Shown: piece after piece, positions 873 to 33,157 of the stretch
Layout: every line of letters starts with the position of its first letter
Numbering within the stretch: position 1 is the stretch's first letter
Origin: Deferribacterales bacterium
GTDB taxonomy: Bacteria; Chrysiogenota; Deferribacteres; Deferribacterales; Geovibrionaceae
Direction of reading: 5' to 3'
Assembly (NCBI GenBank): GCA_050253335.1
Contig: JBFWJG010000012.1
Span: 1-48,661, forward strand
DNA length: 48,661 nucleotides
Position numbers and translations under genes: made by a program
Notes under the pieces: model-generated
What the model saw: only the letters and a program-made list of their open reading frames with translations
What the model was told of the DNA's origin: nothing
The model's database searches: none

Positions 873-968
873 ACATTAAACCGTACATCCTGTCGGTTTA
901 ATGTACACGCTCACGGCGGGATAAACCCGCCTTCGCTCCGCACGGCGAACTCCCATCCTTGGGAGTTC
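873..968. repeat. Three-hairpin repeat family A, copy 1
   Basis: ACATTAAACCG-T-ACA-TCC-TGT-CGGTTTAATGT; linker ACACGCTCAC; GGCGGG-ATAAA-CCCGCC; linker TTCGCTCCGCACGGC; GAACTCCCA-TCCT-TGGGAGTTC. Confidence 0.9.
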
Positions 969-979
969 AAGGCTTAATA

Positions 980-1063
980 ACATTAAACCGTACATCCTGT
1001 CGGTTTAATGTACACGCTCGCGGCGGGATAAGCCCGCCTTCGCTACGCACGGCGAACTCCCAT
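980..1063. repeat. Three-hairpin repeat family A, copy 2 (tandem, period 107, third hairpin truncated)
   Basis: Near-identical to 873-956; stops after GAACTCCCAT. Confidence 0.9.
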
Positions 1064-1065
1064 AC

Positions 1066-1124
1066 GGAGGCTTTAGTTTTAACAACAGCTTCCCCCTTTA
1101 TCAAAGGGGGACAGAGGGGGATTT
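1066..1124. repeat. Repeat family B (TCCCCCTTT-N3-AAAGGGGGA..AGGGGGATTT), left-truncated copy
   Basis: TTTTAACAACAGCTTCCCCCTTTATCAAAGGGGGACAGAGGGGGATTT closely matches 44279-44330. Confidence 0.8.
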
Positions 1125-1278
1125 ATTGATATACCCGCCCCCGCATGCTCTGAAAAGCATCACTTCGAACCCTCAGAGGTGAAGCGGTCTCTCAGCGTCT
1201 CATCAAAACAGGGAAATATATTCCCCCTTCCAACCGCCGTATACCATAAATATCTGATAATTTGCAATTTACCATCTT

Positions 1279-1294
1279 TGGCACGTTTCTTTCT
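1279..1294 (+). promoter_or_regulatory. Putative sigma54 promoter for flgH
   Basis: TGGCACG-TTTC-TTTCT versus consensus TGGCACG-N4-TTGCW; one mismatch, in the conserved GC; 35 nt before the flgH start. Confidence 0.5.
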
Positions 1295-1328
1295 ATTACA
1301 TCTCCGAATCCCTTCACAGAGGTGTACA

Positions 1329-2063
1329 ATGAGCACAGGAACAAGAAAATTTTTCACGGCAGGTCTGGTTCTTTCTGCCCTTCTCATATTCTCCGGCTGC
1401 GCCAAGCAGTACGACTTTGAGCCTGAAGCATACAAACCCAGCTACAAGGAAGACATTGAGCGCTACGCCATGCAGCAGAGGGAAAAAGTTCCGACAGCCT
1501 CCCTCTGGGCGGATTCAGGAGTGAGAGGAACACTTTTCCTTGACTACAAAGCCCGTCAGGTCGGCGATCTCATTGTGGTGAACATTGTGGAATCATCCTC
1601 CGCCAGCAACTCCAACTCAACACAGACAAGCAAATCAGGCAGCAACAACTCCTCAGTAACAGCCGCTCTTGGGCTTCCCCTTAACCTCGGCATGAGCAAC
1701 TTTCTCGGCACAGGCGGCGAGTTCAGCCCGACCATCGGCACAAACACGTCAGAATCCTTTGCAGGAAACGGAAGCAAAAGCAAATCCGATTCAGTGAGCG
1801 CCACCATAGCCGCAAGGGTGATTGAGATTCTCCCCAGCGGCAACCTTGTGATCGAAGGCAACCGCGAGATAATAGTCGATCAGGAAAAACAGATAATAAA
1901 ACTCACCGGAGTAATCAGGCAGAAGGATATAAGCGCCGAGAACACTGTTCTCTCCACTTCCATTGCCGATGCCCGCATATCCTACAGCGGCAAGGGCATA
2001 ATCTCCGATTCCAATAAAAAAGGCTGGCTGGGAACTGTTCTCGGCTGGGTATGGCCCTTCTAG
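1329..2063 (+). CDS. flgH: Flagellar L-ring lipoprotein FlgH
   Basis: Lipobox FSGC; motifs KARQVGDLIVVNIVE, GNLVIEG, IADARISYSGKG and C-terminal WPF. Start set at ATG 1329 with GAGGT RBS. Confidence 0.95.
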   Translation: MSTGTRKFFTAGLVLSALLIFSGCAKQYDFEPEAYKPSYKEDIERYAMQQREKVPTASLWADSGVRGTLFLDYKARQVGDLIVVNIVESSSASNSNSTQTSKSGSNNSSVTAALGLPLNLGMSNFLGTGGEFSPTIGTNTSESFAGNGSKSKSDSVSATIAARVIEILPSGNLVIEGNREIIVDQEKQIIKLTGVIRQKDISAENTVLSTSIADARISYSGKGIISDSNKKGWLGTVLGWVWPF

Positions 2064-2074
2064 GAGCTGATGAA

Positions 2075-3160
2075 ATGAAGAAATTTGCCGTAATACTCCT
2101 TATTTTTTTCATAGGCCTTGAGGCTTCCGCAAACGTAAAAATACGCGACCTTGTGAACATAAAAGGGATCAGAGACAACCAACTTATAGGCTACGGCCTC
2201 GTTGTGGGGCTTAACGGCACAGGGGACAAAACCGGAACAGAGTTCACCATACAGTCCCTTGTGAACATGCTGGAAAGAATGGGAATAACCGTCAACAAGG
2301 ATGATGTTAAGGTAAAAAACGTTGCCGCTGTGATGGTTACGGCAAAGCTTCCCGCCTTTGCGAAGAACGGCAGCAAGACAGACGTGGTTGTCTCCTCCAT
2401 TGGCGACGCCAAGAGCCTTGAGGGCGGAACGCTTCTCATGACGCCCCTTTCCGCCGCGAACGGACAGACCTACGCAGTGGCGCAGGGTCCCATATCGGTC
2501 GGGGGGATGAATGTTTCCTCCGGCGGAGCGGGAGCGGTAAAAAACCACCCCACAGTGGGAATGATCCCCAACGGCGCGCTTGTTGAAAGGGAAATAGACT
2601 TCCAGATGAACACCAATTTCTTTGAAATAGCATTCAACACATACAACATGACAAACGTTGTAAGGGCAAAAGACGCCATCAACGCATACATCGGCTCTGA
2701 TGTGGCTTCCATAACCTCGCCCACAAGCATCAAAGTGGATATACCGGACGTTTTCCGCACTAACTTTTATGATTTCATGGACTCAGTGCTCAGCATACCC
2801 GTTGAGCCCGCAGGCAAGGCGAAAGTGGTTGTGGACGAGCGCACGGGGACAATTGTTATGGGCGCCGATGTGCGGATAAGCACCGTTGCGGTCTCCCACG
2901 GAAACCTCACCATAACAATAAGCAGCACGGTGGACACCGAGCGCAACCTCTTCAACCCGTTTGAGGAGACCACAACGGAAACCACTAATATCCAGGTTGA
3001 GGAAGAGCCCAACAAGCTGATGGTTGTGCCCGAAGGGATAAGCATAAGCGACCTTGTGAAGGCGCTGAACTCCATAGGCGTAACCCCCAGAGACCTCATT
3101 TCGGTTCTTCAGGCCATCAACTCCGCAGGTGCTCTGCACGGCGAGCTGGAGGTGATGTAA
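2075..3160 (+). CDS. flgI: Flagellar P-ring protein FlgI
   Basis: GIRDNQLIGYGLVVGLNGTGD, KNVAAVMVTA, GDAKSLEGGTLL motifs; start ATG 2075 after GGAG. Confidence 0.97.
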   Translation: MKKFAVILLIFFIGLEASANVKIRDLVNIKGIRDNQLIGYGLVVGLNGTGDKTGTEFTIQSLVNMLERMGITVNKDDVKVKNVAAVMVTAKLPAFAKNGSKTDVVVSSIGDAKSLEGGTLLMTPLSAANGQTYAVAQGPISVGGMNVSSGGAGAVKNHPTVGMIPNGALVEREIDFQMNTNFFEIAFNTYNMTNVVRAKDAINAYIGSDVASITSPTSIKVDIPDVFRTNFYDFMDSVLSIPVEPAGKAKVVVDERTGTIVMGADVRISTVAVSHGNLTITISSTVDTERNLFNPFEETTTETTNIQVEEEPNKLMVVPEGISISDLVKALNSIGVTPRDLISVLQAINSAGALHGELEVM

Positions 3161-3564
3161 TGTTCGCAGAAACGGTCAGGGAAGCCAAAAGCTTTGACGG
3201 CTACACCACGATTGACAAGGAAAAAAGGCTTAAAGAGGCCTGCCAGGACTTCGAGGCTATGTTCTACGACATGATATATAAAACCATGCGTAAAGCCACC
3301 ATGGAGTCTGACCTTGTAAAGAAAAGCGCAGGCGAAAAATACTTCACAGAGATGCTTGACACTGAAATGTCAAAAAAAGCCGCTGAAGAGTCCAAGGGCG
3401 GCATAGGCGACATGCTTTTTGAGCAGATGAAGAAATATCTTCCCGGATCGGATCAGGGAAACAATTACCACGGGGAAAAGAAAACTGATCTCAAAAACCC
3501 CTACAACAGCGCAAACACGCTGATCGGCAACAGAAAAGGCAATGGCATAAACGTTGCTATTTAA
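3160..3564 (+). CDS. flgJ: Flagellar rod-binding protein FlgJ (short form, no muramidase domain)
   Basis: LKEACQDFEAMF..MRKA..FTEMLD..GIGDMLFEQM rod-binding signature; TAATG coupling to flgI. Confidence 0.9.
   Translation: MFAETVREAKSFDGYTTIDKEKRLKEACQDFEAMFYDMIYKTMRKATMESDLVKKSAGEKYFTEMLDTEMSKKAAEESKGGIGDMLFEQMKKYLPGSDQGNNYHGEKKTDLKNPYNSANTLIGNRKGNGINVAI
3543..3558 (+). promoter_or_regulatory. Sigma54 promoter upstream of flgM, inside the last codons of flgJ
   Basis: TGGCAT-AAACG-TTGCT with exact GG-N10-GC spacing. Confidence 0.7.
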
Positions 3565-3624
3565 TAACTAAGAACGAGATTGCGTGAAAGGCAAGTTTCA
3601 CTGGAAACTGAAGGCAAATACTGC

Positions 3625-3651
3625 TAAAGTTGGAATGTAATCTGCCGATAT
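3625..3651 (+). promoter_or_regulatory. Sigma28 (FliA) promoter for flgM
   Basis: TAAA-N15-GCCGATAT, 25 nt before the flgM start, followed by GGAGG RBS. Confidence 0.85.
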
Positions 3652-3675
3652 ATAAGACATCGGAGGAGCATTGAC

Positions 3676-3972
3676 ATGAGGATCGAAGACAAAATCAGCC
3701 TCTCGCTGAAAAAAACTGAACAGTCTGAACAGGCAAAAGCGAAGAAGAGCGAATCTTCCTCTGCGAAGAAGTCTGCCGAAACTGACAGCGTGTCCTTATC
3801 CTCCGGCGCCAAAGAAGCAGTTGCCATTTCCAAGAAGCTTAAAGCGGCTTCCGACATACGCATTGAACTTGTAAACGAAATCCGCGGCAAAATCGAAAAC
3901 GGAACCTACGAGGTTTCCGGCAGACAGGTCGCGGAAAAAGTTGTCAATGCGGCCATAGACGATATTTTCTAA
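3676..3972 (+). CDS. flgM: Anti-sigma28 factor FlgM
   Basis: DSVSLS and IRIELVNEIRGKIENGTYEVSGRQVAEK motifs; gene context. Confidence 0.95.
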   Translation: MRIEDKISLSLKKTEQSEQAKAKKSESSSAKKSAETDSVSLSSGAKEAVAISKKLKAASDIRIELVNEIRGKIENGTYEVSGRQVAEKVVNAAIDDIF

Positions 3973-4020
3973 AAAAGCCCTTTCCCGCACATCTCGACCC
4001 CCCGCATATGGAGGCAAGGG

Positions 4021-4500
4021 ATGGACAGATTCAGAAACCTTCTTGATATACTGAAGTCGCAGTGCGAGCTTTATTCTGAGCTTGCGTCCGTTATGGCGCT
4101 TGAGAAAGAAGCCGTAGCCAGATGGAATGTCGATGACACGCTGGAACTCACCAAGCGCAAGGATACCCTTGTTTATAAGGAGAAGATCCTTGAGGAAGCC
4201 AGACGCACAATAATCAAAAAAATCAGCATGGATGAAGGCAGGGACGAAATATCTCTGTCTGAAATTATAGATCTCGCGGACGGGACGGAGCTCAGGAGTG
4301 AGTTCAATCAGGTGCGCACTAACCTGAAAAACGTAATGCACAGGCTTAATGATGAAAACCTCGCCCTCAAGATCCTCTACAGGACAAACATAAGCCTTGT
4401 GAACGACTTTTTCGACAGGCTGGGCATCACCGCAGGCAGCACCTACGGCACACAGGGCAAGCCCAGAGGCGTAAACTCCCTGCTTGACAAAAGAGGATAG
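4021..4500 (+). CDS. flgN: Flagellar export chaperone FlgN
   Basis: Helical 159-aa protein between flgM and flgK, ending with N..L..F and TYG motifs. Confidence 0.85.
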   Translation: MDRFRNLLDILKSQCELYSELASVMALEKEAVARWNVDDTLELTKRKDTLVYKEKILEEARRTIIKKISMDEGRDEISLSEIIDLADGTELRSEFNQVRTNLKNVMHRLNDENLALKILYRTNISLVNDFFDRLGITAGSTYGTQGKPRGVNSLLDKRG

Positions 4501-4509
4501 GAGGGCGCC

Positions 4510-6267
4510 GTGTCCAATATTTTCGGCATATTCAACAGCGGTATTTCAGGGCTGATGGCCTCTCAGGCCGGCATAGACGTGACAGGCCACAACATAGCCA
4601 ACGTCAATACCGCAGGCTACTCCAGACAGACAGTGAGCCTCACCACTCAGACCCCCAATATCAACGGCTCGCAGGTTTTCGGCAGAGGCGTTCAGATAAC
4701 GTCCATCACAAGGGTTTATGATGAAATCCTCGCTGAAAGCATACGCAACGAACAGTCTCAGCTCAGCTATTACACCTCCATACAGACCACGCTTTCCAAA
4801 GTCAGCGTGTATTTCAATGAGCTTGAGGACGGTTCCGGCCTTGGGGAATCGCTGAGAGACTACTTCGACGCATGGCAGGATCTCGCCAATAACCCTACAG
4901 ATCAGGCTGAGGAAGCTCTCGCGAAAAGAGTGACCCTTGTTGAAACCACAAATACGCTCACCCAGAAGATACAGAGCAGCTACAACCAGCTTGAAAGCTT
5001 CAGAGAGGAAGCGGACTATAATATCTCGTCATACGTTGATGAAATAAACCAGCTCACTGAGGCGCTCGCGGAGATAAACGGACAGATAGCCAAGGTGGAG
5101 TCACTGGGCAACACGGCAAACGACTACCGTGACAAAAGGGATCAGATCCTTACCAGACTCTCCGAACTTGCCAATGTGAGCGTAAATGAGAAATCAAACG
5201 GTCAGGTTACGGTGTACCTCGGCGGAAGCGCACTGGTGGACGACAAAGTCAATTACAAGCTTTTCGCGGAAGGCGATAACAACAATAACGGGCACTACAG
5301 AATAACATGGGGAACAGCCATAGACTCCAAAGGGCAGACCGACCTCACGTCATTCATTACGGGCGGCGCTATAGGCGCTGAACTCGCCGCAAGAGACGAA
5401 GTGGTGACAAACTACATGTCTCAGCTTGACGAGCTTGCCGTAACCCTCATAAACGAAACCAACAGAGTGCATTCTCTCGGTCAGGGCGTTAACAGGTTCA
5501 CACAGATGACCTCAAATAACGGCGTGCCCAACCCTTCCTTTGTGTTTTCGCAGGAGCCGGGTGCATTCCCCACGGAACAGATAACAAAAGGCACAATGAG
5601 GATAACAGTTTACGACTCTGACGGGGAACCCGCCGGAACCTACGATATAGACATTGATCCGGACAGGGACAACCTCAACAGCGTGATACAGAAAATATCC
5701 GCGGCGGACGGAGACCTGACAGGCGGAAAGCTTCAGGCATCAATCTCGCTGGACAACACTGTGAAAATCTCCACCGAGGCGGGTTATACCTTCGCCTTCA
5801 CGGAGGATACCTCAAACTTCCTTGTGGCGGCGGGGCTGAACTCCTACTTCTCGGGAACAGGGGCAAACGATATTAAGCTTTCAAACCTCATACAGGAAAA
5901 CAACCTGTACATCGCAACCGGAACAAGCGGAGCCGCAGGGGACAACACCGTCGCCGCGAAGCTCGCCAACCTCAAATTTGAGAAAGTTTTTGAAGAACAG
6001 GGGATAACCATAGACGGCTTTTACAGCTATTTTGTGGCCACCCTCGCCAGCGAGAAAAATCAGGCGGACACTTTTGTAACAACAATAACCTACTCCCTCA
6101 GCGAGCTTCAGCTCAAGATGGAGGAAATACAGGGCGTTTCCATGGACGAGGAACTCACCAACCTTATGAGATTCCAGCGTTCATACGAGGCAAGCGCCAG
6201 ATTCATAACCACGGTTGACAGCATGATAGACAAGCTGATCAACGGCACGGGACTTGTGGGCAGATAA
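4510..6267 (+). CDS. flgK: Flagellar hook-associated protein FlgK
   Basis: GHNIANVNTAGYSRQ at the N-terminus; GVSMDEELTNLMRFQRSYEASAR at the C-terminus; GTG start. Confidence 0.97.
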   Translation: MSNIFGIFNSGISGLMASQAGIDVTGHNIANVNTAGYSRQTVSLTTQTPNINGSQVFGRGVQITSITRVYDEILAESIRNEQSQLSYYTSIQTTLSKVSVYFNELEDGSGLGESLRDYFDAWQDLANNPTDQAEEALAKRVTLVETTNTLTQKIQSSYNQLESFREEADYNISSYVDEINQLTEALAEINGQIAKVESLGNTANDYRDKRDQILTRLSELANVSVNEKSNGQVTVYLGGSALVDDKVNYKLFAEGDNNNNGHYRITWGTAIDSKGQTDLTSFITGGAIGAELAARDEVVTNYMSQLDELAVTLINETNRVHSLGQGVNRFTQMTSNNGVPNPSFVFSQEPGAFPTEQITKGTMRITVYDSDGEPAGTYDIDIDPDRDNLNSVIQKISAADGDLTGGKLQASISLDNTVKISTEAGYTFAFTEDTSNFLVAAGLNSYFSGTGANDIKLSNLIQENNLYIATGTSGAAGDNTVAAKLANLKFEKVFEEQGITIDGFYSYFVATLASEKNQADTFVTTITYSLSELQLKMEEIQGVSMDEELTNLMRFQRSYEASARFITTVDSMIDKLINGTGLVGR

Positions 6268-6282
6268 TAGCAGGGTGCTGAT

Positions 6283-9200
6283 ATGAGAGTTACTTACAAT
6301 TACATGACAATGAGATACCTCACCGGAATCCAGAACAACCTCAACGGTGTTTCAAACGGTCTGGACGCGGTCACGAAGGGGCGGAACCTCCTCACTCCGG
6401 AGCAGGACCCGGTAAGCTACATCTCCGCCCTCACCATACAGACCATGCTTGATGAATCCGCTCAGTTCAAAAGGAATGCGGAAAACGCCCTTACATGGCT
6501 CAGCAACGGCGATAATGAGCTTCAGTCCGCATCCAGCCTGATCAGTAAAGCGCTGAACGAGTACGCCATTTACGGCATGAACGACAGCCAGAGCACAGAA
6601 AGCCGTCAGGCTCTCGCAGGGGATGTTCAGGGGATAATCGAAGGTCTGCTCAATGTGGGCAACGCCTATTACAACGGTCGCTACCTTTTCTCCGGACACG
6701 CCACACAGACCAAGCCTTTCCAGACTCAGGAAAGGCAGGTAAGCTCCGTGGTCTCCAACATAAACGGCGCTGACGCCATGGTGCAGAAGCAGTACAACGA
6801 CATGCCGGAACTCAAGGAAGGCTCCTACACCATGAAGGTGACCGTCACCAACGGCATCGCCTCTGTTCAGCTTTTTGACAAAAACAACAATAAAGTGCTC
6901 TTGGATACAAACGGAACCGATGAAACGGCAGGAAAAGGGAACAACACGTCCTATACACTCACCACGGCCTACTCAAAAGGCATGGTAATAAACACAGGCA
7001 CAGGGGCAGGGGTCAAGCTGCCTGACGCCGACATGGAAGGGCGCACCCTCACCACAACTTTTTACTACAAACCGGGCGACAACGTAAGCTATTACGGCGA
7101 TGAAGGAATAGTCACCACCAAAATAGGCTACAGTCAGGATGTGGACATAAACATGACCGGACAGGAAATCTTTATGGAAACATACAAGACCCTGCGCGGA
7201 ACAGTCACCAACACCGTCAACGGCCTCTATGCCACACCCACGACCTACTTCTCCTCCCTTGACGGAGCAAACGCCATGCTGGCGGATTCCATAAGCATAA
7301 ACGGAACCGACCACAACGGCTATAAAATAGGCATAGCGAAGCTTACCGCTCCCGCTGCCGTCACACTTGACATGGCGACAGCCACCAAGGCGGAAAGAAC
7401 AGTCACACTGAAATACGCGGATGAAGAGTTTGAGCTGACCCTCGATCAGAAAGGGTACAATGATATAGACGAAGTGATCTTCGAGCTTAACAGAAAACTG
7501 GAGAACGAAGGTCTCGCTGACGAGATTCAGGCTGTTAACGACGGCGACAGGGTTATGTTCATAACCACAAGAAGCGGCGACAGGGTGCAGCTTGATCTCA
7601 GGGGCACAGTGAACAACAAGCTTGGATTCACCGACCCTACCCCTTCCTCGACAACGGATTTCACATACTCCGCCAAAGGCAAGGATACTGTATTCGAAAT
7701 AGGCTACAGCAGCTTTGACCAGCCGGTGACCATAGAATATAAAAACGAAACCCTCACCGGAGGGAACGACAACAGAGCAAATTTCCCCGCGGGAGTAAAT
7801 GAAATCTTCGTGAACGGAGTCGCCATGAGCTTCACCGTCAACGCAGGGGACACAGCGGAAGATATTCAGAATACAATAAATCAGACTCTGAAAGACAAAG
7901 GGTTCGCCTTCACTGTCACGGCTCAGGTGGAATCAACCCCCACGGCAGATATGTATGACCTCACGCTGAAGCTCCACAACGTAAACTACGGAGACGACAC
8001 ATTCCTCTCAGCCAAAGTGGACACGGCGGACGGCGTAAACGATTATCTCACCGCAAATCCGAAAAACTCGGACTACCCCACAACAACCGAAAAAAGGCTC
8101 GGGGATTTTCTCACGTTTGTGGAAAACCTGTATGATAACGCCGTGGACGCGTCCCTTGTGGACGGCAAGCTGGTTGTTCAGGACATAAGAAGCGGCTCCA
8201 GCAGGCTCACTTTCAACATAAATGAAGAGAACACCGGAATAGGCTACCCCATGCTTGAGCAGTCGGTGAAAGTCAGTGGGAAATACACCGGCACAAGGGA
8301 CGACAAATGGTCCTTCAATGTTGTTATGCAGGCCGCCAACCCCATGGATCCCAGTGATTTTGACAAAATAGTCGTCAGCGTCACAGACTCCAAAGGGAAC
8401 AAGGTCTCCACACAGACACTCAGGCAGGACGCCTACCATGGCCAGGAGATTGAGATAACCAAGGGGGTAAAAATTTCCCTCGGACAGGTCACAAACTCCA
8501 CAAGCTTCACTCTTGACCTCAACGCAGGCGCAAACGTGAGCTTCGGCGATATAAACGTGATAGAGGAAGGGAAAAACGTGGATACGTTCCGCTCCCTCAA
8601 GAACCTCTACAACGCTCTGAACCTCGATATCCCCGAACAGGGGATAGGTGCGCCCAGCGCATGGAGGGACACAGCGCTGAACTCAACCGCAACCCCATAT
8701 TTTGACGGAACATTCAGGGGGAACTATAACGATCTTTTCAACTTCCAGATACTGACAACCAACAGCCTCAGCGAGATGTATGTCCAGTCCGAGCTGAAGA
8801 GTGTTACCTCCGAAGTAAACTATACAGCTAACAGCGACATTGATTTCGATCTTGTCGTAAAAGACGGAAACAATGTTTATACCAGAAACATCTTCATAGA
8901 CAGAGACAGCATCTTCGCTTCAGTTGAAAGCCCCGCAGCGGGCACAGAGCCCGCGCGCCTCAGCTTCACGGAGCCGGCAGGCCTCACTTTCTACTATCAG
9001 GACGGAGGAGTCTGGACAGAAAGCGCCGTTAGCGTTCCCGCAGGAAACTACGCCAGTTTGAACGATATAGTTACGGCAATAAATACAGCCCCCGGCCTTC
9101 CGGCGGGAGTAACGGCAAATGCCGACCCCGACGGCACAATAAGCTTCACGGCGGGCGGCACGGTTACGAACCTCAATGTTTCCGGCGATGCGGACAGCGC

Positions 9201-10485
9201 TCTCGGTTTTGACTCATTCGATCCGGGAGAACTGATCATCAACACAGTAAATGATATGATCTCCACGGATGCTGATCTGGCAGGTCTCGGAGTACGTGCT
9301 TACAACAACGGCGGAAAGCTTGAGATATTCTCCGGCTCGGGAACCCACGAGATCTCCATGAACGCCAACAACGAAGGCACAGGGATGACATTCTTCCAGA
9401 CTTACAGCCCCACGAAGGCCCAGAATGCCGCTCCGCTGGCTTTCAGCACAAACAAGGTGCTGGATCTCACTTACTACGACACAGCCTCTGATACATGGAC
9501 AACAACGCAGGTAACTTTTCCCCCTGATATTTCAGGGGAGTATGCAGATGCTGCCACCCTTGCGGCGGCTGCGGCCGGACTTCCCGCGGATATTACAGTC
9601 ACGGCGGACAATAACGGAAACCTCAGCTTCACGGCGGGCGGAACCCTGACAAATCTTTCTGTTTCCGCAAACACCGCCCTCAGCGGCGAGAACGTGTCCG
9701 TACTCGGCTTTTATAAAACCGCATCGGCAGACAGCATAACCGCCGCCGGCTCACCCAAGCTTTTCCTTAAAGATGCCTCCACAGGCCAGAGGACAATAAG
9801 CTTCACCTATAATGACGGAACATCAAAAACCGCTTCCATAACACTTGAGGCTAAAGATTATGATTCCGTGGACGAACTATTAAATGAAGTCACCGACAAG
9901 CTCACAAACGCAGGGCTCGGAGCCATAATCAGCGCTGAACTGGTTGACGGGGAAAATCTCTCCTTCGTTTATGACGACACTGTGATAAACAGCTTCCATG
10001 TTTCAGGCGATTATGAAAGCACGCTCGGTTTTTCCAAAGCCGGAACAGAAGCGCAGATAAAGGTCACAGGCAGTGACGGGGAGCTCATCTCCATGTACAC
10101 CATTGACACCGCAAACGAGACATACCACGTTGCGGACGGTGTCTACGGCGGGTTTGATGCCGGCTACCTTTACGCCACCGACTCTTTCACTACCGCTGTC
10201 GGCTCCGGAATAGAGTACGAGCTGCCGGTGCTTGAGCAGGCGGAAACACAGATAACAAACTCACTCACCGCAGTGGGTACAAGACAGAACAGGGTGGAAA
10301 CCTCCATCAACTACTACACGGTGATGAGCACCACCAACGAAGAGATTAAGGCAGGCTATCTGGGAGCCTCGGCCGAGGATCAGAGTGCGGCCATCACTTC
10401 ATACCAGCTTGCACTGCAGGCTTACCAGACCGCTCTGCAGGCAACAGCGAAGATAATGAATATCTCGCTTCTCAACTTTCTTTAA
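6283..10485 (+). CDS. flgL: Flagellar hook-associated protein FlgL, very large (1400 aa)
   Basis: Flagellin-like ends (MRVT.., GNAYYNGRYLFSGH..TKPF; VGTRQNRVE..AYQTALQATAKIMNISLLNFL); lies between flgK and fliW. Confidence 0.92.
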   Translation: MRVTYNYMTMRYLTGIQNNLNGVSNGLDAVTKGRNLLTPEQDPVSYISALTIQTMLDESAQFKRNAENALTWLSNGDNELQSASSLISKALNEYAIYGMNDSQSTESRQALAGDVQGIIEGLLNVGNAYYNGRYLFSGHATQTKPFQTQERQVSSVVSNINGADAMVQKQYNDMPELKEGSYTMKVTVTNGIASVQLFDKNNNKVLLDTNGTDETAGKGNNTSYTLTTAYSKGMVINTGTGAGVKLPDADMEGRTLTTTFYYKPGDNVSYYGDEGIVTTKIGYSQDVDINMTGQEIFMETYKTLRGTVTNTVNGLYATPTTYFSSLDGANAMLADSISINGTDHNGYKIGIAKLTAPAAVTLDMATATKAERTVTLKYADEEFELTLDQKGYNDIDEVIFELNRKLENEGLADEIQAVNDGDRVMFITTRSGDRVQLDLRGTVNNKLGFTDPTPSSTTDFTYSAKGKDTVFEIGYSSFDQPVTIEYKNETLTGGNDNRANFPAGVNEIFVNGVAMSFTVNAGDTAEDIQNTINQTLKDKGFAFTVTAQVESTPTADMYDLTLKLHNVNYGDDTFLSAKVDTADGVNDYLTANPKNSDYPTTTEKRLGDFLTFVENLYDNAVDASLVDGKLVVQDIRSGSSRLTFNINEENTGIGYPMLEQSVKVSGKYTGTRDDKWSFNVVMQAANPMDPSDFDKIVVSVTDSKGNKVSTQTLRQDAYHGQEIEITKGVKISLGQVTNSTSFTLDLNAGANVSFGDINVIEEGKNVDTFRSLKNLYNALNLDIPEQGIGAPSAWRDTALNSTATPYFDGTFRGNYNDLFNFQILTTNSLSEMYVQSELKSVTSEVNYTANSDIDFDLVVKDGNNVYTRNIFIDRDSIFASVESPAAGTEPARLSFTEPAGLTFYYQDGGVWTESAVSVPAGNYASLNDIVTAINTAPGLPAGVTANADPDGTISFTAGGTVTNLNVSGDADSALGFDSFDPGELIINTVNDMISTDADLAGLGVRAYNNGGKLEIFSGSGTHEISMNANNEGTGMTFFQTYSPTKAQNAAPLAFSTNKVLDLTYYDTASDTWTTTQVTFPPDISGEYADAATLAAAAAGLPADITVTADNNGNLSFTAGGTLTNLSVSANTALSGENVSVLGFYKTASADSITAAGSPKLFLKDASTGQRTISFTYNDGTSKTASITLEAKDYDSVDELLNEVTDKLTNAGLGAIISAELVDGENLSFVYDDTVINSFHVSGDYESTLGFSKAGTEAQIKVTGSDGELISMYTIDTANETYHVADGVYGGFDAGYLYATDSFTTAVGSGIEYELPVLEQAETQITNSLTAVGTRQNRVETSINYYTVMSTTNEEIKAGYLGASAEDQSAAITSYQLALQAYQTALQATAKIMNISLLNFL

Positions 10486-10499
10486 CAGGTAAGAGGTGA

Positions 10500-10985
10500 A
10501 TGAAGATGAAATCCAACCTTGCAGAAAACACAGAGGTTTCAATGGAAAAAATAAAAATGTCCTCAACCAAACTGGGTCCGATCGAATACACGGAGAATGA
10601 TATCATAACACTCTCGGCTCCGCTGCTGGGGTTTCCCGACCTCAGCGACTTTCTGCTGATTTCCAGTGACAAGTCGTTCCCTTTTCTCTGGTTTCAGGCA
10701 ACGCAGGATCCGGATGTATGCTTCATTCTCATAGAGCCGAAGATATTTCATCCGAACTATGACCCGAAAATCAACAAGCGCGAACTGAAAATACTCGGAA
10801 TCGAAAAAGATGAGCAGCTTAAAATAGCCGCTATAGTGGTGGTTCCGGAAGACCCGAAAAACGCCACAGTGAACCTGCGCGCCCCTGTTCTGTTAAATAC
10901 AGAGAAAAAACTGGCAAAACAGGTTATACTGGAAGATGACAGGTGGATGATAAAAGCTCCGCTTTTTGCCGCCAAGGATAAGTGA
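10500..10985 (+). CDS. fliW: Flagellar assembly factor / CsrA antagonist FliW (start may be 10506 or 10542)
   Basis: [28 protein letters not shown] motifs; adjacent to csrA. Confidence 0.95.
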
Positions 10986-11215
10986 TGCTTGTACTGTCCA
11001 GAAAAACGAACGAAAGTATAATAATAGGTGAAAACATAGAGATCCGCATAGTGGAAGTGGCGGGCAAAAGCGTTAAGCTTGGGATAGACGCTCCGAGGGA
11101 TGTCAGCGTGCACCGCAAGGAGATCTTCGAGGCGATAAAAGACGAAAATATACAGGCCGCCACAAAGGAAAACCTTGTTTCCCTTGTGGACTTCTTCAAA
11201 AACCAAAACACATAA
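10985..11215 (+). CDS. csrA: Translational regulator CsrA (FliW-type, with C-terminal extension)
   Basis: [33 protein letters not shown]44 and N55 present when counted from ATG 10985. Confidence 0.97.
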
Positions 11216-11229
11216 AGCTGAGCAGTAGG

Positions 11230-11259
11230 TCATAATTCCCGGTCTTCAGGGAATTATGA
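11230..11259. terminator. 11-bp hairpin between convergent csrA and ccmD-like genes, possible terminator
   Basis: TCATAATTCCC-N8-GGGAATTATGA; no clear U-tract. Confidence 0.4.
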
Positions 11260-11358
11260 TGTGCGCCCCGGGCGGGGCAAATCTTCCTTCACCGCGTTCA
11301 TAACCCGGCGGGAAAGCCGCCTCCCCGAGGGCTGCGGCATTGCCCAAGCCTTTTCAGA

Positions 11359-11496: not shown

Positions 11497-11528
11497 GAAT
11501 AACTCCTTTATATCTTTTATATTCTTAA

Positions 11529-19831: not shown

Positions 19832-19839
19832 AAATATAC

Positions 19840-20868: not shown

Positions 20869-20874
20869 TTTCTT

Positions 20875-23790: not shown

Positions 23791-23791
23791 C

Positions 23792-24946: not shown

Positions 24947-25094
24947 ATGTTTTCCTTGCTGTTTGATTTATGGTTTTAAGACAGGGTAATAAATTATTTA
25001 AACTTGAGAAACCCTTTTTTAACGAAAAAAAAGGGTTTCTCATACTCTTCCCAAAAAACTGCTTTTGGTTTTCAGTTTTTTTTATTTTTTCAGA

Positions 25095-25235
25095 TTATCC
25101 CTGCATAGCTTCTGACTTGATGATGCCGAATTTCTCATCCTGAAAATTCGGCATACACGCTCGCGGTTTGCAAAGCAAACCTTCGCTGCGCACGGCGCAT
25201 CTCCATCCTTGGAGATGTTATCCCTGCATAGCTTC
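25095..25235. repeat. 18-bp direct repeat of the htpX 3' end flanking family A copy 3
   Basis: TTATCCCTGCATAGCTTC at 25095-25112 and 25218-25235. Confidence 0.9.
25123..25217. repeat. Three-hairpin repeat family A, copy 3
   Basis: ATGCCGAATTT-C-TCA-TCC-TGA-AAATTCGGCAT; ACACGCTCGC; GGTTTGC-AAA-GCAAACC; TTCGCTGCGCACGGCG; CATCTCCA-TCCT-TGGAGATG. Confidence 0.9.
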
Positions 25236-26066
25236 CAGTCTTGCTATGCGCTCCTCCACGGGGGGGTGGGTGGAGAAAAGGTTCATTGCCTGACGGGCGG
25301 AAAAGGGATTCATTATAAACATATGGGCAGTTGCCGGCTGAGCGTCATCCATAGGCGCAGCCGCCACTCCGCCGGATATTTTGCGAAGTGCGCTTGCGAG
25401 AGCTTTCGGTTTCCCGCAGAGCTTTGCCCCTCTGGCATCAGCTATGTATTCCCTTGATCTCGAAATAGCCATCTGTATCATCATCGCAGCTATGGGCGCA
25501 ATTATCATAGCCGCAATCGCCGCGAAGGGGTTGCTGTTTTCGCCCTCGCTGTTCCTTGAACCGCCGAATATCATCGCCCATTTCGCAGTGTTTGCTATCA
25601 TCATTATAGCGCCCGCAAAAGTGGCTGCGATAGTGCCGATAAGTATGTCGCGCCCGTAGATATGCGCCAGCTCATGGGCGAGAACACCCTCAAGCTCGTC
25701 ATCGTTAAGGAGGTCAACAATACCCGTAGTCACCGCAACTGCGGCGTTTTCGGGGTTTCTGCCTGTGGCGAATGCGTTCGGCGCGGGGTTGTGGATAACG
25801 TAAACCTTGGGCATGGGTATGCCGCCCTTAGTGGTGAGATTACGCACGATGCGGTGGATGCCGGGGGCTTCCGTCTCGTCCACTTCCACCGCTTTGTACA
25901 TTTTCAGGACAATTTTGTCGCTGAACCAATAGGAGAAGAAGTTCATCCCTATGGCAAAGATGAAGGCGAACATCATTCCGCCCCTCCCGCCGATGAGGCC
26001 TCCCACAAACATGAAAAGCACAGTGAGAAGCGCCATGAAGAATGCCGTTTTCATTGAGTTGCTCAT
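25218..26066 (-). CDS. htpX: Zinc metalloprotease HtpX
   Basis: [28 protein letters not shown]. Confidence 0.97.
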
Positions 26067-26099
26067 TTTCTATACCTCGATTTTTATTATATCCGTTTT

Positions 26100-27567: not shown

Positions 27568-27748
27568 CCTCTTATATATTGTCTCAAAAGCTTAATTTAT
27601 CCGTTTTTGAGCCGTGTTGTAAAGGGTATTTGCCGAGTTTTTTACAAAAGGCCCGCTCAGGCCGTTCTATTATCAGCCTATGTCCTTTTTTAAGTTGCAT
27701 TATGTTTTTTTTCCATTAAAATTTTTCCTTCACCTCGGAGGATAAATT

Positions 27749-27973
27749 ATGGTCAAAGTTATTATTAACGGTGAAAAATGCAAGGGGTGCGGTCTGTGCA
27801 TTCAGGTCTGTCCCAAAAAGATTCTCCGTTTTTCAGAAAACATAAACTCCATGGGCTACAGCGTTATTATGTGTACGGATCAGGAAGCGTGCATCCTGTG
27901 CAAAAGCTGCGCGCTTGTCTGTCCCGATGTGGTTTTCACCCTTCAGAAACAGGATTCAGGCGGTAAAAAATGA
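27749..27973 (+). CDS. 2x[4Fe-4S] ferredoxin, delta subunit of 2-oxoacid:ferredoxin oxidoreductase
   Basis: CKGCGLCIQVCP and CILCKSCALVCP. Confidence 0.93.
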   Translation: MVKVIINGEKCKGCGLCIQVCPKKILRFSENINSMGYSVIMCTDQEACILCKSCALVCPDVVFTLQKQDSGGKK

Positions 27974-29019
27974 GCGGAAAAGTACTGATGAAGGGGAATG
28001 AAGCCATAGCCGAAGCCTCCGTAAGGGCGGGGCTCGCGGGCTATTTCGGCTATCCTATCACCCCCCAGAATGAATTTACGGCATATATGTCATACCACAT
28101 GCCCGCCAGAGGCAGAGCCTTTGTTCAGGCGGAAAGCGAAGTGGCGGCGATCAACATGGTCTACGGCGCCGCCGCAACCGGATGCAGGGTAATGACATCC
28201 TCCTCAAGCCCCGGCATCGCACTCATGCAGGAAGCCATTTCCTACATGTGCGGAGCGGAGGTTCCCGCGGTCATCGTGAACATAATGCGCGGCGGCCCCG
28301 GCCTCGGCAACATAGGCCCCAGTCAGGGCGACTACAACCAGGCTACAAGAGGCGGCGGCAACGGCGACTACAAAATGGTTGTCTACGCTCCTTCCACAGT
28401 TCAGGAAGCGGTTGATCTCACCTATAATGCTTTTGACATAGCAGACAAATATAAAATTCCCGTCTTCATCCTCGGCGACGGCGCACTCGGCCAGATGGCG
28501 GAGCCTGTTCTCCTTCCGGAGGAAAAACCCGTGATGAACGGCGATCAGGGCTGGGGCTTGGGCGGAGCAAAAGGCAGGGAGCCCAGAGCGGTTATGTCGC
28601 TCAGGCTTGCTGAGGGCCAGCTCAGGAAGCACAACTGGGATCTCGCCTCGAAGTTTGAAAGGATAGCCGAAGCGGAAACAAAATACGAACTCACCGACAC
28701 TGATTACGATGTTCTCGTGGCGGCCTTCGGCACAGCGGCTAGGGTTGCAAAAACCGCAATCCGCCAGCTTAGAGAGCAGGGCATAAAGGCAGCCCTTTTC
28801 CGCCCCGTAACCATATGCCCCTTCCCTTATGCTGCGCTTGCGGATGCGGCGAAAAAGGCGAAGAAGGTTCTGGTTGCAGAGATGAACACAGGGCAGATGC
28901 TCTTTGATGTTAAGGTGGCCGTTGAGGGCGCTGTTCCCGTTGAGTTTATGGGCTGTCCCGGCGGGGAATCCTTCTCACCGGAGGAGATAGCCTCAAAAAT
29001 AAAAGAGATGCAGGGGTAG
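27970..29019 (+). CDS. 2-oxoacid:ferredoxin oxidoreductase alpha subunit (VOR-like)
   Basis: [35 protein letters not shown]. Confidence 0.93.
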
Positions 29020-29023
29020 ACGG

Positions 29024-29773
29024 ATGAGCATAGTTTTTCAGAAACCCGAAAGCCTTACTGATAAAACCACAATCTTCTGCCCCGGATGCAGCCACGGAAT
29101 AATCCACAGGCTGGTGGGCGAGGTTCTGGACGAGCTTGAACTCCGCGAAACCACGGTGGGCGTTGCCCCTGTCGGGTGCGCGGTTCTTCTTTATGAATAT
29201 TTCAGGACAGATATAGTCGAAGCGCCCCACGGGAGAGCGCCCGCCCTTGCCACAGGCATAAAAAGGGTGAGACCCGACCTCACCGTTTTCAGCTATCAGG
29301 GTGACGGAGACCTCGCCTCCATAGGCATGGCGGAAATTATGCACGCCGCCAACAGGGGCGAGATGATAACAGTCATCTTCGTGAACAACGCCAACTACGG
29401 CATGACAGGCGGGCAGATGGCTCCCACCACCCTGCCGGGGCAGAGAACAACCACAACCCCCACAGGAAGGGACTGCGCCACCCACGGCTCACCTTTCAGA
29501 ATGGCGGAGATAATGGGCGCTCTTGACCCTGTTGTTTACAGCACAAGGGTAAGCGCCGCCACTCCCGCCAAGATAATGAAGGCGAAAAAGGCCATCAAAA
29601 AAGCCTTTCAGAACCAGAAGGAGAACAAAGGCTTCTCATTTGTTGAAGTTCTTTCCACCTGCCCCACAAACTGGGGCATGACTCCCGCTGACGCGGTTCA
29701 GTTTGTGGAAAAGGACATGGAAGCCTATTATCCCCTCGGAGTGTTCAAAGATGCGGACGGGGGTGAGAAATGA
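29024..29773 (+). CDS. 2-oxoacid:ferredoxin oxidoreductase beta (TPP-binding) subunit
   Basis: [25 protein letters not shown]. Confidence 0.93.
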
Positions 29774-30318
29774 TTTTTGAAAGCGTAATGGCCGGCTTCG
29801 GCGGTCAGGGTATTCTCAGTGCGGGAATGATGCTCGCACACATTGCCTCTCACAAGGGGCTGAACGTCACATGGTTCCCCTCATACGGAGCGGAGCAGAG
29901 GGGCGGAACAGCAAACTGCACAGTTGTTATCTCCGACCTTGAGATAGGCTCGCCCATAGTCACCGCACCCGCTTACGGGCTTATAATGAACATGCCCTCC
30001 TTCAATAAGTTCCAGCCGCGCTTCCGCAAAGGGGCAAAGGCTGTCCTTGACACCACCCTTGTTGATCCTTCTGCGGTGACAAGAACGGATGTTGAGTTTT
30101 ACGGACTGAACGCAGGGGACATAGCCCGCGATCTGGGTAATGTAAAGGTTGCCAACATGGTTATGATAGGCGGTCTTCTGGCAGTTTCGGGGCTCTTCAC
30201 TCTGGAAGAGGCCGTAGCCGAGCTTCCCAACGCCCTCTCTAAGAAGCATCATGATCTGATACCTCTGAATGAGCAGGCGCTGTCCAAAGGGTTCAGCGAA
30301 ATCAAAAAGATAAACTAA
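29770..30318 (+). CDS. 2-oxoacid:ferredoxin oxidoreductase gamma subunit
   Basis: [23 protein letters not shown]. Confidence 0.93.
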
Positions 30319-30326
30319 AAGTTAAA

Positions 30327-30358
30327 CAGGGCGTCCTTCGGGACGCCCTGCCTGTTTT
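30327..30358 (+). terminator. Terminator hairpin with UUCG tetraloop
   Basis: CAGGGCGTCC-TTCG-GGACGCCCTG followed by CCTGTTTT. Confidence 0.75.
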
Positions 30359-30508
30359 GGAAATAAAAATTAAACTTACCATAAAACTCTTTACAGTAAA
30401 GGGTTACACAATTGTTTCAGGGTTGCGTGAGATTCATAAAATTTTCTATTGAGTTTTTTAATGTAATCCTCTAAAACAAAATACTTTTCTATTTTCGGAG
30501 GTTCTGAT

Positions 30509-31498
30509 ATGTCGCTTATGAATAAGTTCTGGGACATCGCCAAGTCCAGAAACAAAACGATCGTTTTGCCGGAAGGAACTGATGAAAGGACAATAGACGC
30601 CGCCAACGCCATAGTCGAAAACGGACTCGCCAAAGTTATAGTTCTCGGTGATGAAAAGGAAGTAAGGGGGCTCTTCGCGCAGAAGGGCTACGCAGTGAAA
30701 TGCGAAATCATCGACCCGAAAACCAGCAAATATCTTGAAGAATTCACAAACTATTATTACGAGAAGAGAAAATCCAAAGGGATGACAATGGAGGAAGCCT
30801 CAGAAAGCATGAAGGATGTGCTTTATTTCGGCTCCATGCTTGTGGAAAAAGGAATCGCCGACGGCGCAGTAACCGGAGCCTGTCACACTACGGGCGACGT
30901 TCTGAGAGCCGCTATCCGTGTTATCGGAACCAAAAAAGGGATGAGGACGGTTTCAAGCTGCTTCATCATGGTTACTCCCAAGCCCGAATTCGGCAAGGAC
31001 GGCGCAGTTCTCTTTGCAGACTGTGCGGTTATCCCCAACCCTGACGCAAGAACACTCGCTGAAATCGCCCTCGCCACGGCGGGCAGCTGCAAGGCCTTCC
31101 TTGAGGTTGAGCCTAAGGTGGCTCTGCTCTCGTTCTCCACAAAGGGAAGCGCTCAGCACGCCGATGTGGACAAGGTGACGGAAGCCCTTAAAATAGCGAA
31201 AGAGCTTGCTCCGGAACTTGCCATTGACGGCGAGCTTCAGGCGGATGCGGCGCTTCTTGCCTCCGTCGGCGCGAAAAAGGCTCCGGGAAGCAATGTGGCC
31301 GGACAGGCGAACGTCCTTGTTTTCCCCACCCTTGATGCAGGAAACATAGGCTACAAACTCGTGGAAAGAATCGCAGGCGCGGAAGCCATAGGCCCGGTTA
31401 TTCAGGGACTGGCGAAGCCGGTGAACGATCTTTCCAGAGGATGCAAATACATGGATATAGTGAACGTTGCCGCCATTACGGCAGTTCAGGCTGATTAA
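30509..31498 (+). CDS. pta: Phosphate acetyltransferase
   Basis: [36 protein letters not shown]. Confidence 0.97.
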
Positions 31499-31511
31499 GG
31501 AGGAAGTGCCG

Positions 31512-32762
31512 ATGTTCATACTGGCTCTTAACTGCGGCAGCTCGTCCGCCAAATACCAGCTTTATGACTGGGACAATAAAAAAGTTATCGCAAAAGGTGT
31601 TGTTGAGCGCGTCGGTATAGGCGACTCGTTCATAGTGCACGAAGTGGACGGAAGACCCACCTACAGGGATGAATACGAGTGCCACGACCACGGAACGGCC
31701 GTTGAGCTCATAGTCAAAACCCTCACATCCTCCGAAACAGGCGTTATCACCAATATGAAGGAGATCTCCGCTGTCGGTCACAGGGTTGTCCACGGCGGCG
31801 ACAAGTTTAAGAGGAGCGTCAGACTTGACGCAGATGTAATAAAAACCATAGAGGATGTCCAGCACCTCGCCCCCCTTCACAACCCTCCCAACCTTGCGGG
31901 GATAAGGGCGGCATACACTGTTCTGCCCGATGTGCCTCAGGTGGCCATCTTCGACACTGCCTTCCACCAGACAATGCCCGACTACGCATATATGTACGCA
32001 GTGCCCTATGAGTGGTACGAGGATTACGGAGTAAGACGCTACGGATTCCACGGCACAAGCCATCTTTACGTATCCAAGCGCGCGGCGGCTCTCCTCGGGA
32101 AAAACTCGAAAGACTGCAACATCATAACCATGCACATAGGCAACGGTGTTTCCCATACCGCCATAAAAAACGGCGTGTCAGTGGACACATCCATGGGTCT
32201 CACACCCCTTGAAGGCGCGATAATGGGAACCAGATGCGGCGACCTCGATCCGGCTATCCCGCTTTTTATGCAGGGACAGCTCGATATCGACTACCGCAAG
32301 ATGGACACAATCCTCAACAAAAAATCCGGTATGCTCGGCATAAGCGGCAAATACACCGACAGAAGGGATATTCTCCAGTGCAGTTTTCCTGAAAGCAAGG
32401 ACAGATGCCGTCTGGCCATAGACATGGAAGCCTACAGGCTGAAAAAATACATAGGCACATACTATGCTGTTCTCGGCAGGGTGGATGCGATCGTCTTCAC
32501 CGCGGGAGTCGGCGAAAACGCCGGAATAATCCGTCAGAAGGCTCTGGAAGGGCTTGAGGATATGGGAATCATCGTTGATGAGCAGAAAAACCTCTCCACA
32601 TTCTCCAAGCACGGCGAAACCGAAATCTCCACTCCCGAGTCAAAGGTAAAAGTTTTCGTCATCCCCACCAACGAGGAGCTTGTCTTCGTGGAGGATGTTG
32701 TGGCTATTCTCAACGGAACCTACAAAGATCACACAGAGTACGAGTATTCGTTTCTCAAATAG
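31512..32762 (+). CDS. ackA: Acetate kinase
   Basis: LNCGSSS.K, GHRVVHGG, APLHNP, FDTAFH, YGFHGTSH, IPTNEE. Confidence 0.98.
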   Translation: MFILALNCGSSSAKYQLYDWDNKKVIAKGVVERVGIGDSFIVHEVDGRPTYRDEYECHDHGTAVELIVKTLTSSETGVITNMKEISAVGHRVVHGGDKFKRSVRLDADVIKTIEDVQHLAPLHNPPNLAGIRAAYTVLPDVPQVAIFDTAFHQTMPDYAYMYAVPYEWYEDYGVRRYGFHGTSHLYVSKRAAALLGKNSKDCNIITMHIGNGVSHTAIKNGVSVDTSMGLTPLEGAIMGTRCGDLDPAIPLFMQGQLDIDYRKMDTILNKKSGMLGISGKYTDRRDILQCSFPESKDRCRLAIDMEAYRLKKYIGTYYAVLGRVDAIVFTAGVGENAGIIRQKALEGLEDMGIIVDEQKNLSTFSKHGETEISTPESKVKVFVIPTNEELVFVEDVVAILNGTYKDHTEYEYSFLK

Positions 32763-32767
32763 ATAAT

Positions 32768-33157
32768 AGCCGCACCTGCGTCCTGCGGTGCGGCTGAAAC
32801 CGCTCGCGGCTTGCAAAGCAAGCCTTCGCTCCGCACGGCGCAGTTCCATCCATGGAACTGTCAGGAGAACGCTGAGTATTTAAAGCTGACATATCATAGA
32901 TAATAGCCGCACCTGCGTCCTGCGGTGCGGCTGAAACCGCTCGCGCCTTGCAAAGCAAGCCTTCGCTCCGCACGGCGCAGCATCTTGTCTTCACATCCAA
33001 AATTTGCCTTCCATGGAAATTTTGGACACACGCTCGCGGCTTGCAAAGCAAGCCTTCGCTCCGCACGGCGCAGTTCCATCCGTGGAACTGCTAGAAAAAT
33101 ACTGAATATTTAAAGCTGACATATATGTGGATAATAACTGCGTCCTGCGGTGCGGCT
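32768..33157. repeat. Cluster of family A repeats: copy 4 (32768-32860), copy 5 (32905-32980, lacks third hairpin), copy 6 (32996-33091), fragment (33138-33157)
   Basis: Core CGCTCGCG(G/C)CTTGCAAAGCAAGCCTTCGCTCCGCACGGCGCAG occurs three times; tail CTGARTATTTAAAGCTGACATAT at 32872 and 33102. Confidence 0.92.

Follow-up and report, generated by a model that had tools for sequence, protein, structure and literature searches.

In proteobacteria, the REP/BIME (REPIN-RAYT) elements are high-copy palindromic repeats that lie between genes and after them, form mixed arrays, are transcribed within messenger RNAs (mRNAs) and are under selection, and in E. coli REP elements near stop codons affect translation. 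BOX, Correia and ERIC elements are modular units of ~100-150 nucleotides (nt) that contain several hairpins, occupy intergenic or 3′ positions and are co-transcribed with genes. Here we describe a dispersed repeat of three hairpins in a Deferribacterales bacterium, noticed in a stretch of 48,661 nt (contig JBFWJG010000012.1 of assembly GCA_050253335.1; "the window" hereafter means this whole stretch). The repeat is real, structured, selected and lineage-specific, and its outer hairpins carry loops of the type recognized by the regulator CsrA.

To our knowledge, no RNA antagonist of CsrA is established in bacteria that encode the FliW-CsrA pair, where CsrA is thought to act mainly on flagellin. 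The RNA preferences of CsrA itself have been defined by SELEX (systematic ligand evolution by exponential enrichment), and a review gives the consensus RUACARGGAUGU with ACA and GGA invariant, places the GGA usually in a hexaloop closed by AC/GU, describes ligands with few contiguous stem pairs (typically four or fewer) and reports that one CsrA dimer bridges two sites 10-63 nt apart (PMC7652899). A structured element with loops of this kind, TwoAYGGAY (RF01731), appears in a table of Weinberg 2010 (PMC2864571). A Pseudomonas genome may hold anything from tens of copies to 202, with other repeats flanking them; according to a preprint it has been proposed to bind Csr/Rsm proteins, and action as a multivalent sponge and mobile-like expansion have been raised as questions (bioRxiv 10.64898/2026.09.22.753630).

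A selected three-hairpin repeat family

A sequence-only reading of the window had proposed scanning the genome with a covariance model as a check on the repeat. The model was built from 48 aligned units, comprising five from the window and 43 from other genomes, and was used to search the genome to which the window belongs (G000; 2.58 Mb in 142 contigs, 48.9% GC). This search returned 148 units at E<=0.001 (150 candidates were scored), which group into 107 clusters: 63 single units, 34 double, 7 triple and 3 arrays of four. Twelve of the 107 clusters fall inside predicted genes, which were called crudely from open reading frames (ORFs) and codon scores; some of them are probably chance matches to the core, and all were left out of the context counts. 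The scan thus confirms the family genome-wide, with ~150 units at ~95 intergenic loci, and because many contigs end in units the true number must be higher. The 16-nt linker, with up to two mismatches, occurs 164 times in the genome, with the other linker upstream in 138 cases.

Read along the strand that carries GGA, a unit of ~100-115 nt consists of the third hairpin, the invariant linker CGCCGUGCGnAGCGAAG, the central hairpin, the linker CGCGAGCGUGU, the first hairpin and an AU-rich tail. The invariant single-stranded linkers are the best conserved part of the unit, the outer hairpins stand in direct rather than inverted orientation, and the first hairpin has a conserved one-base bulge below an apical stem of 2-3 base pairs (bp). 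Among hairpins with at least six pairs, GGA lies within the apical 9 nt of 124/130 first and 112/133 third hairpins, far above the ~1 in 10 expected by chance in a random 9-mer. The loop GGA together with the CA(N)GGANG flanks of a CsrA/RsmA site, as given in a review, is found at the apex of 118/130 first and 107/133 third hairpins, amounting to ~225 consensus-type outer loops across the genome. These loops are of two types, (A/G)CAGGA(U/C)G(U/C), with the core CAGGAUG, and CCAUGGANGG, which agree in no more than the pattern CA, optional base, GGA, any base, G. CAGGAUG predominates in the first hairpin, and AUGGAU or ACGGAU loops are common in the third. Since the base before GGA varies (U, A or C), the loops are not mere Shine-Dalgarno mimics. 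Many units fall into subfamilies with identical hairpins.

The predicted fold is borne out by covariation, with double compensatory changes at 21 of the 28 pairs predicted by RNAalifold for the 48-unit alignment. A fourth helix in the RNAalifold output, pairing CGCCGU with GCG-A-GCG, was rejected: its segments never vary in the alignment, which leaves it without covariation, and diverged copies disrupt the pairing.

Selection on copies in place was assessed by comparing G000 with G003, a complete single-contig genome of the same genus whose flanking sequences are ~85% identical. Units are present in both genomes at 25 syntenic loci. The best orthologous pairs have a mean identity of 87%, against 70% for random pairs, indicating that copies have been inherited in place with little homogenisation. 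Across the 15 orthologous pairs that align without gaps, the loop GGA had changed at only 1 of 90 sites, alongside 59 of 1008 stem sites and 62 of 537 other unpaired sites. When both sides of a base pair had changed, pairing was kept in 15 cases and broken in 1; when one side had changed, it was kept in 13 and broken in 14. Purifying selection thus maintains the hairpins and the loop GGA once a unit has been inserted. Conservation of the GGA had been a second check named by the sequence-only reading, and besides the near-absence of change between orthologues the triplet is kept in diverged copies of other genera.

When one genome per species was scanned with an exact pattern, 51 loci were obtained, of which 40 lie in one Deferribacterales metagenome-assembled genome (MAG), 3 in another, 2 in a Denitrovibrio MAG and 6 in unrelated GC-rich genomes; these last are single matches, and the two inspected (L016 and L034) have no hairpins. 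Searching with the model gave at least 90 matches in each of four genomes of the genus (at least 151 in the complete one), 0-13 in other genera of the family, 14 and 1 in the genomes of one genus of another family, and no element in 24 further genomes of the order. Diverged copies, from other genera and the one other family, keep GGA in both outer loops, and their linkers drift to forms such as CGC-UUGCG. The repeat is therefore lineage-specific, having multiplied to at least ~150 units per genome within a single genus of Deferribacterales.

The window contains six units and one fragment at three loci: 866-1074, between flgA and flgH (two units); 25113-25217, 3′ of an M48 peptidase (htpX-like) gene (one unit); and 32760-33158, 3′ of ackA (three units and the fragment). 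On the plus strand a unit reads as a TTAATAAC-like leader, the first hairpin, linker ACACGCTCGCG, the central hairpin, linker CTTCGCTnCGCACGGCG and the third hairpin, and among the window units the stems of all three hairpins are specific to the locus. Unit 1 (866-967, minus strand) is complete and antisense to both flgA and flgH. Its GGA loops are read on the minus strand, and along the plus strand it runs from the leader TTAATAAC through the first hairpin (875-902), linker, central hairpin and linker to the third hairpin (948-967). Unit 2 (973-1074, minus strand), a tandem copy 107 nt after unit 1, has a degenerate third hairpin. The complete unit 3 (25113-25217, minus strand) abuts the M48 peptidase gene (25218-26066, minus strand) with zero gap, its hairpin beginning on the very next base after the stop codon (25217/25218), and here the GGA strand is sense. 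It is bounded by an 18-nt direct repeat, the downstream copy (25095-25112) being a duplicate of the final 18 nt of the peptidase gene, stop codon and all (gene-end copy, 25218-25235). Unit 4 (32760-32860, minus strand), also complete, begins at the stop codon of ackA and is antisense to it; unit 5 (32896-32977, minus strand) has no third hairpin; the complete unit 6 (32989-33090, minus strand) carries a CCATGGAAGG-type loop in its first hairpin; and the array ends in a truncated extra first hairpin, a partial unit at ~33128-33158 (minus strand).

Re-reading the apexes on the minus strand agreed with the initial observation that all ten complete outer hairpins carry CA(N)GGANG (CAGGATG three times, CAGGACG twice, CATGGAAG, CAAGGATG twice, CATGGATG and CACGGATG). 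A full unit had also been said to present two such loops about 68 nt apart, and in unit 3 the GGA triplets (TCC at 25138-25140 and 25206-25208) are separated by exactly that distance. When four window units were folded on the GGA strand, the three-hairpin structure scored z = -3.8 to -4.4 relative to shuffled sequences; the opposite strand of one window unit gave z = -5.0.

Two further repeats were seen in the genome. A second family, at 1090-1125 and 44295-44330 of the window, consists of a hairpin CCCCCTTT..AAAGGGGG followed by GGGGGATTT and has 33 matches genome-wide; for 19 of these a three-hairpin unit lies within 400 nt. A third, GTCATTCTGARCG...GAAGAATCTC (for example at C1:17016 and C1:18906 of G000), has 94 matches, 37 of which have a unit within 400 nt; the loop of this repeat is similar to the invariant GCGnAGCGAAG linker, a hint of a common reader.

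Gene context and spread of the repeat

The flanking genes of G000 point the same way at 49 loci; in 41 of these the GGA strand is the sense strand and in 8 the antisense strand (p ~2e-6). Of the other loci, 21 are flanked by convergent and 2 by divergent genes, and 23 sit at contig ends. It had been cautioned that the htpX-like gene alone has GGA on its sense strand, whereas flgA and ackA have it on the antisense strand. That description stands for the window and does not extend to the genome: the window happens to hold two of the eight antisense loci, so the concern reflects an unrepresentative sample. The orientation bias is also seen in G003, in which the GGA strand is sense at 33/45 co-directional loci. 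Units sit for the most part shortly behind stop codons. At 24/81 loci in G000, nothing but the third hairpin intervenes between a sense gene's stop codon and the core of the unit.

The suggestion that a unit is a portable module is supported by a filled and an empty site. At locus L077 a unit is present in the sister species and absent from G000, and bordering the insertion is a duplicated stretch of 26 nt from the end of the upstream gene that takes in the stop codon. More generally, an exact direct repeat of at least 10 nt spans the unit or array at 35/84 loci, compared with 9/415 shuffled pairs of flanks, the longest being 46 nt; on reading them, we take ~13 of the 35 to be extra partial units and ~22 to be unique flanking sequence. 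Six duplications were inspected by eye, and in all of them the repeated segment is the terminal 24-72 nt of the gene upstream, stop codon and all. Overall, the target duplications are 18-72 nt long, variable in length and ragged at their ends. Their right edge may fall before, inside or after the third hairpin, and after the second copy there is in some cases a deletion derivative in which the 5′ arm of a third hairpin is joined to the 3′ arm of a first hairpin. The copy number of arrays varies between species at many shared loci and, judging from metagenome contigs, between close relatives.

Among four genomes of the genus, one of them complete, no Y1 transposase (PF01797) was found, and no DDE_Tnp_1 (PF01609) in a search that did not extend to other transposase families; a reverse transcriptase (RVT_1) was present in one of the four. 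Several other genomes of the order contain up to 58 copies of Y1_Tnp or DDE_Tnp_1, and the repeat-rich genus is poor in insertion sequences. A search for a donor of the 16 nt before the third hairpin of L077 gave no match in the ~16% of that genome that it covered. The notion, hinted at by locus L088, that stems are copied from the target was rejected: the commonest hairpins recur at many loci, and the L077 insertion brought its own. Because the duplications are long and variable, their ends are ragged and no transposase was found, spread by replication-linked template switching together with unequal recombination is suggested. Whatever the role of CsrA, duplication of gene ends behind stop codons in genomes without Y1 or DDE_Tnp_1 transposases merits mechanistic study.

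Possible CsrA docking and rival explanations

The window was said to encode fliW and csrA, the latter with the residues R44 and N55, and both genes were recovered with Pfam. The fliW gene (10500-10985, plus strand) encodes the protein antagonist of CsrA, and csrA (10982-11215, plus strand) encodes a candidate reader of the loops of 77 amino acids (aa), in which R44 and N55 are present counting from the initiator Met. Just upstream of fliW-csrA and after flgK lies a gene (6283-10485) whose product, at 1400 aa unusually long for a FlgL- or flagellin-like protein, combines a flagellin N-terminal domain with a flagellin hook IN motif. The CsrB-type RNA model (RF00018) has no match in the genome. 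Both flagellin leaders (G000 C10:8296-8400 and C10:19668-19770, minus strand) contain a hairpin with an AAGGAA loop ~30 nt before the ribosome-binding site AAGGAGGAUG, and this loop type also occurs in the repeat. A hairpin with a GGA loop upstream of the ribosome-binding site is the classical layout of a two-site CsrA operator, known for CsrA-controlled flagellin.

The loops themselves agree with CsrA preferences as the review describes them (PMC7652899). The apex of the first hairpin, ACAGGAUGU above the bulge, conforms to both the consensus and the preference for a short stem, and CC-AUGGAU-GG in the third hairpin conforms to the hexaloop. Moreover, what the CAGGAUG and CCAUGGANGG loop types have in common is limited to the bases reported there as needed by CsrA. 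Together with the genome-wide apex counts, this supports the proposal that each unit presents two loops fitting the CsrA consensus.

We consider a model in which CsrA docks on transcribed units, a reading that is quite possible, if short of probable. According to this model, most units would be transcribed within 3′ untranslated regions (UTRs) or intercistronic RNA, where the sense strand would display two CA(N)GGANG loops. One CsrA dimer would bind both loops of a unit, the folded central hairpin drawing them together, and the ~225 loops would jointly soak up CsrA as a sink spread across the genome. Each host transcript would in turn come to depend on CsrA for its stability or expression, and FliW would remain the protein antagonist. 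A broader proposal, which we consider speculative and improbable as a whole, is that the repeat is a self-spreading CsrA cassette: two-site modules inserted behind stop codons would build a genome-wide sponge out of mRNA and tie the level of free CsrA to bulk transcription in a FliW-type host without a CsrB-like RNA, and transposase-free, replication-linked copying would duplicate the 3′ end of the gene and leave the gene intact. If CsrA does bind the loops, ~225 sites in mRNA 3′ regions would make up the first candidate RNA sink for a FliW-type CsrA.

Evidence on expression comes from assembled contigs of two compost metatranscriptome runs of one study, which carry no information on strand, transcript ends or bridging between gene and element and were interpreted only where covered. 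In these, the core of unit 3 reached depths of 296 and 2358, compared with ~2-7 for neighbouring genes (~100-700x), figures that are strandless, summed over copies and organisms and open to contribution from DNA in the RNA libraries, which limits their weight for docking. In two DNA runs the element core had depths of 27 and 7, with ~3-6 for neighbouring genes. The data hint that element RNA accumulates. Neither promoter- nor terminator-like sites of the units were found at the three window loci, and no T-runs follow the units there. In the same libraries, window positions 33193-33500, upstream of an ORF (33433-33807) with no Pfam match, had RNA contig depths of 28 and 102 against 2-7; this segment may be a strongly expressed leader or small RNA.

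Several observations weigh against docking. At 7-12 bp the outer stems exceed the four or fewer contiguous pairs that the review gives for most SELEX ligands, and the loop spacing of 66-68 nt, ~40 nt of which the central hairpin folds away, lies slightly above the 10-63 nt bridging range given there. The central hairpin and the two invariant linkers have no role in the CsrA model. Single-sided stem changes that produce G:U pairs number 13 for the GGA strand and 10 for the other strand between orthologues, and 13 and 4 genome-wide, with no clear asymmetry, so that selection does not reveal which strand is functional. Intact loops are found in antisense as in sense units (first hairpin 13/14 and 45/58, third hairpin 9/15 and 43/63, respectively); this equal upkeep argues against a role for which sense transcription from the adjacent gene would be required. 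The csrA gene occurs in 36/41 genomes of the order, including all 17 with the element and 19/24 without it; being nearly ubiquitous, its co-occurrence with the element says nothing. The idea is also not new in kind, TwoAYGGAY being a published precedent.

The orientation bias is open to more than one reading as well. In G003, matches lie mostly on the plus strand between 0.4 and 1.6 Mb and mostly on the minus strand between 1.8 and 3.0 Mb, a switch indicating that the GGA strand tends to be the leading strand; the terminus was placed at 1.7 Mb, partly from this strand switch itself. With the origin at dnaA (C1 325-807), leading-strand gene pairs have the GGA strand sense at 26 loci and antisense at 6, and lagging-strand pairs sense at 7 and antisense at 6; GGA is then leading in 26/32 leading-gene and 6/13 lagging-gene loci (p 0.03 for an effect of the gene). 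Mean GC skew is negative at nine sampled loci of the first 0.4 Mb, and the replication origin may lie near 0.4 Mb rather than at dnaA. With the origin at ~0.4 Mb the counts become 28 sense and 6 antisense for leading-strand pairs and 5 and 6 for lagging-strand pairs, with GGA leading in 28/34 and 6/11 loci (p 0.10). On that basis replication describes the bias just as well: GGA is on the leading strand at 34/45 co-directional loci, lagging-strand gene pairs follow the gene in 5 cases and replication in 6, and, with replichores set by GC skew, 20/27 convergent loci have GGA leading (p 0.02). The bias is real, but transcription and replication are inseparable here as its cause.

These data bear directly on an alternative in which the constraint acts on DNA: single-stranded DNA of the lagging-strand template would be used in replication-linked copying or by a host DNA-binding protein, and the likeness to CsrA sites would be coincidental. 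Orientation that follows replication, even at convergent loci where gene direction is neutral (18-20/27), is what this explanation expects, as are outer loops in direct orientation, as in single-strand transposons, and array copy numbers that differ among close relatives. The variable 18-72 nt duplications with ragged ends, and the excess of flanking repeats over shuffled pairs, fit it too, as do stems that are near-perfectly Watson-Crick and antisense units that are equally intact; in addition, the linker motif GCGnAGC is, we presume, a very stable DNA mini-hairpin. It has to contend, however, with the absence of Y1 and DDE_Tnp_1 genes from all four genomes of the genus and the presence of a reverse transcriptase in just one, with the fact that single-strand transposons make no target duplication, and with loop types that share only the CsrA-relevant bases at variable spacing, which a DNA-protein site would seldom show. 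If the element were purely selfish, copies that have stayed put since the two species separated would not be expected to be under purifying selection, and the very high depth in RNA libraries does not sit easily with a role in DNA alone. We regard this explanation as a serious one, though on balance rather unlikely.

The repeat may instead act as RNA independently of CsrA, in the manner of REP/BIME elements, by protecting against exonucleases, by pausing ribosomes at stop codons or by binding another protein at the linkers. Placement directly 3′ of stop codons, the stable folds (z ~ -4) and RNA apparently far above that of flanking genes would all be accommodated, and a reader of the linkers would explain why these are the best conserved segment and why a GCGnAGCGAAG-like loop recurs in another repeat family with 94 matches. 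What such a role leaves without account is that GGA, with its flanking CA and G, is the best-kept feature of the loops across genera, and the terminator-like T-runs lacking 3′ of units at the three window loci do not help it; we hold it to be doubtful. Finally, a neutral and recently expanded junk repeat, its loops alike through recent common descent or gene conversion, could produce the subfamilies with identical hairpins and the tandem arrays as recent duplications, but is very improbable given the little homogenisation implied by orthologue identity (0.87 against 0.70 for random pairs), the single change among 90 GGA sites, the 15 pairs changed on both sides and still paired, and the loops retained by copies from other genera with diverged cores.

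Comparison with described systems

No Rfam family matches the repeat, whether the window (at the gathering score) or the element regions and 16 loci (E<=10) were searched, and a literature search found nothing on this family or on repeats in its genus. The TwoAYGGAY model (RF01731), run over the whole genome, gave no match over 43 bits; the best, at 22.4 bits (E 0.67), lies outside the element.

The likeness to CsrB, CsrC and RsmX-Y-Z consists in many CAGGAUG-type GGA hairpin loops able to titrate CsrA; in the present case ~225 loops are spread over ~95 loci within other transcripts, rather than gathered in one dedicated gene under a promoter and terminator of its own. The repeat resembles REP/BIME elements in being high-copy, intergenic, 3′ of genes, arranged in arrays and selected, but it has neither the GTAG-headed 35-nt palindrome nor, in the four genomes of the genus, a RAYT/Y1 gene, its hairpins are direct and not inverted, and it makes long target duplications. 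Palindromes derived from IS200/IS605 share with it the direct hairpins and the replication-linked bias, and differ in the long duplications and the missing Y1 gene. With BOX, Correia and ERIC elements it has in common a modular build of several hairpins and intergenic and 3′ sites. Miniature inverted-repeat transposable elements (MITEs) have terminal inverted repeats, none of which were seen by eye, without formal test, at copies bounded by direct repeats, and their duplications are short and fixed, whereas those of the repeat are variable at 18-72 nt.

The features that appear to be new are the sense/leading-strand bias, the placement after stop codons, the duplicated gene ends, the lack of the customary transposases, flagellin leaders with loops of a matching type and the hint of RNA accumulation. 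The nearest likeness is to TwoAYGGAY, which is likewise a multi-copy intergenic structured element with two hairpins bearing A-Y-GGA-Y loops. The present repeat differs in that RNAalifold predicts no basal stem around the two hairpins, a third, central hairpin and two invariant linkers lie between them, about half of the loops are CAGGAUG and not AYGGAY, and the host belongs to a different phylum with a FliW-type CsrA. By its predicted structure and loops, the repeat is not a member of TwoAYGGAY but the same kind of thing in another phylum, and if the docking model is correct, it would represent a regulator binding site that spreads in the form of a mobile module, a possibility already speculated on for the TwoAYGGAY repeats of Pseudomonas.

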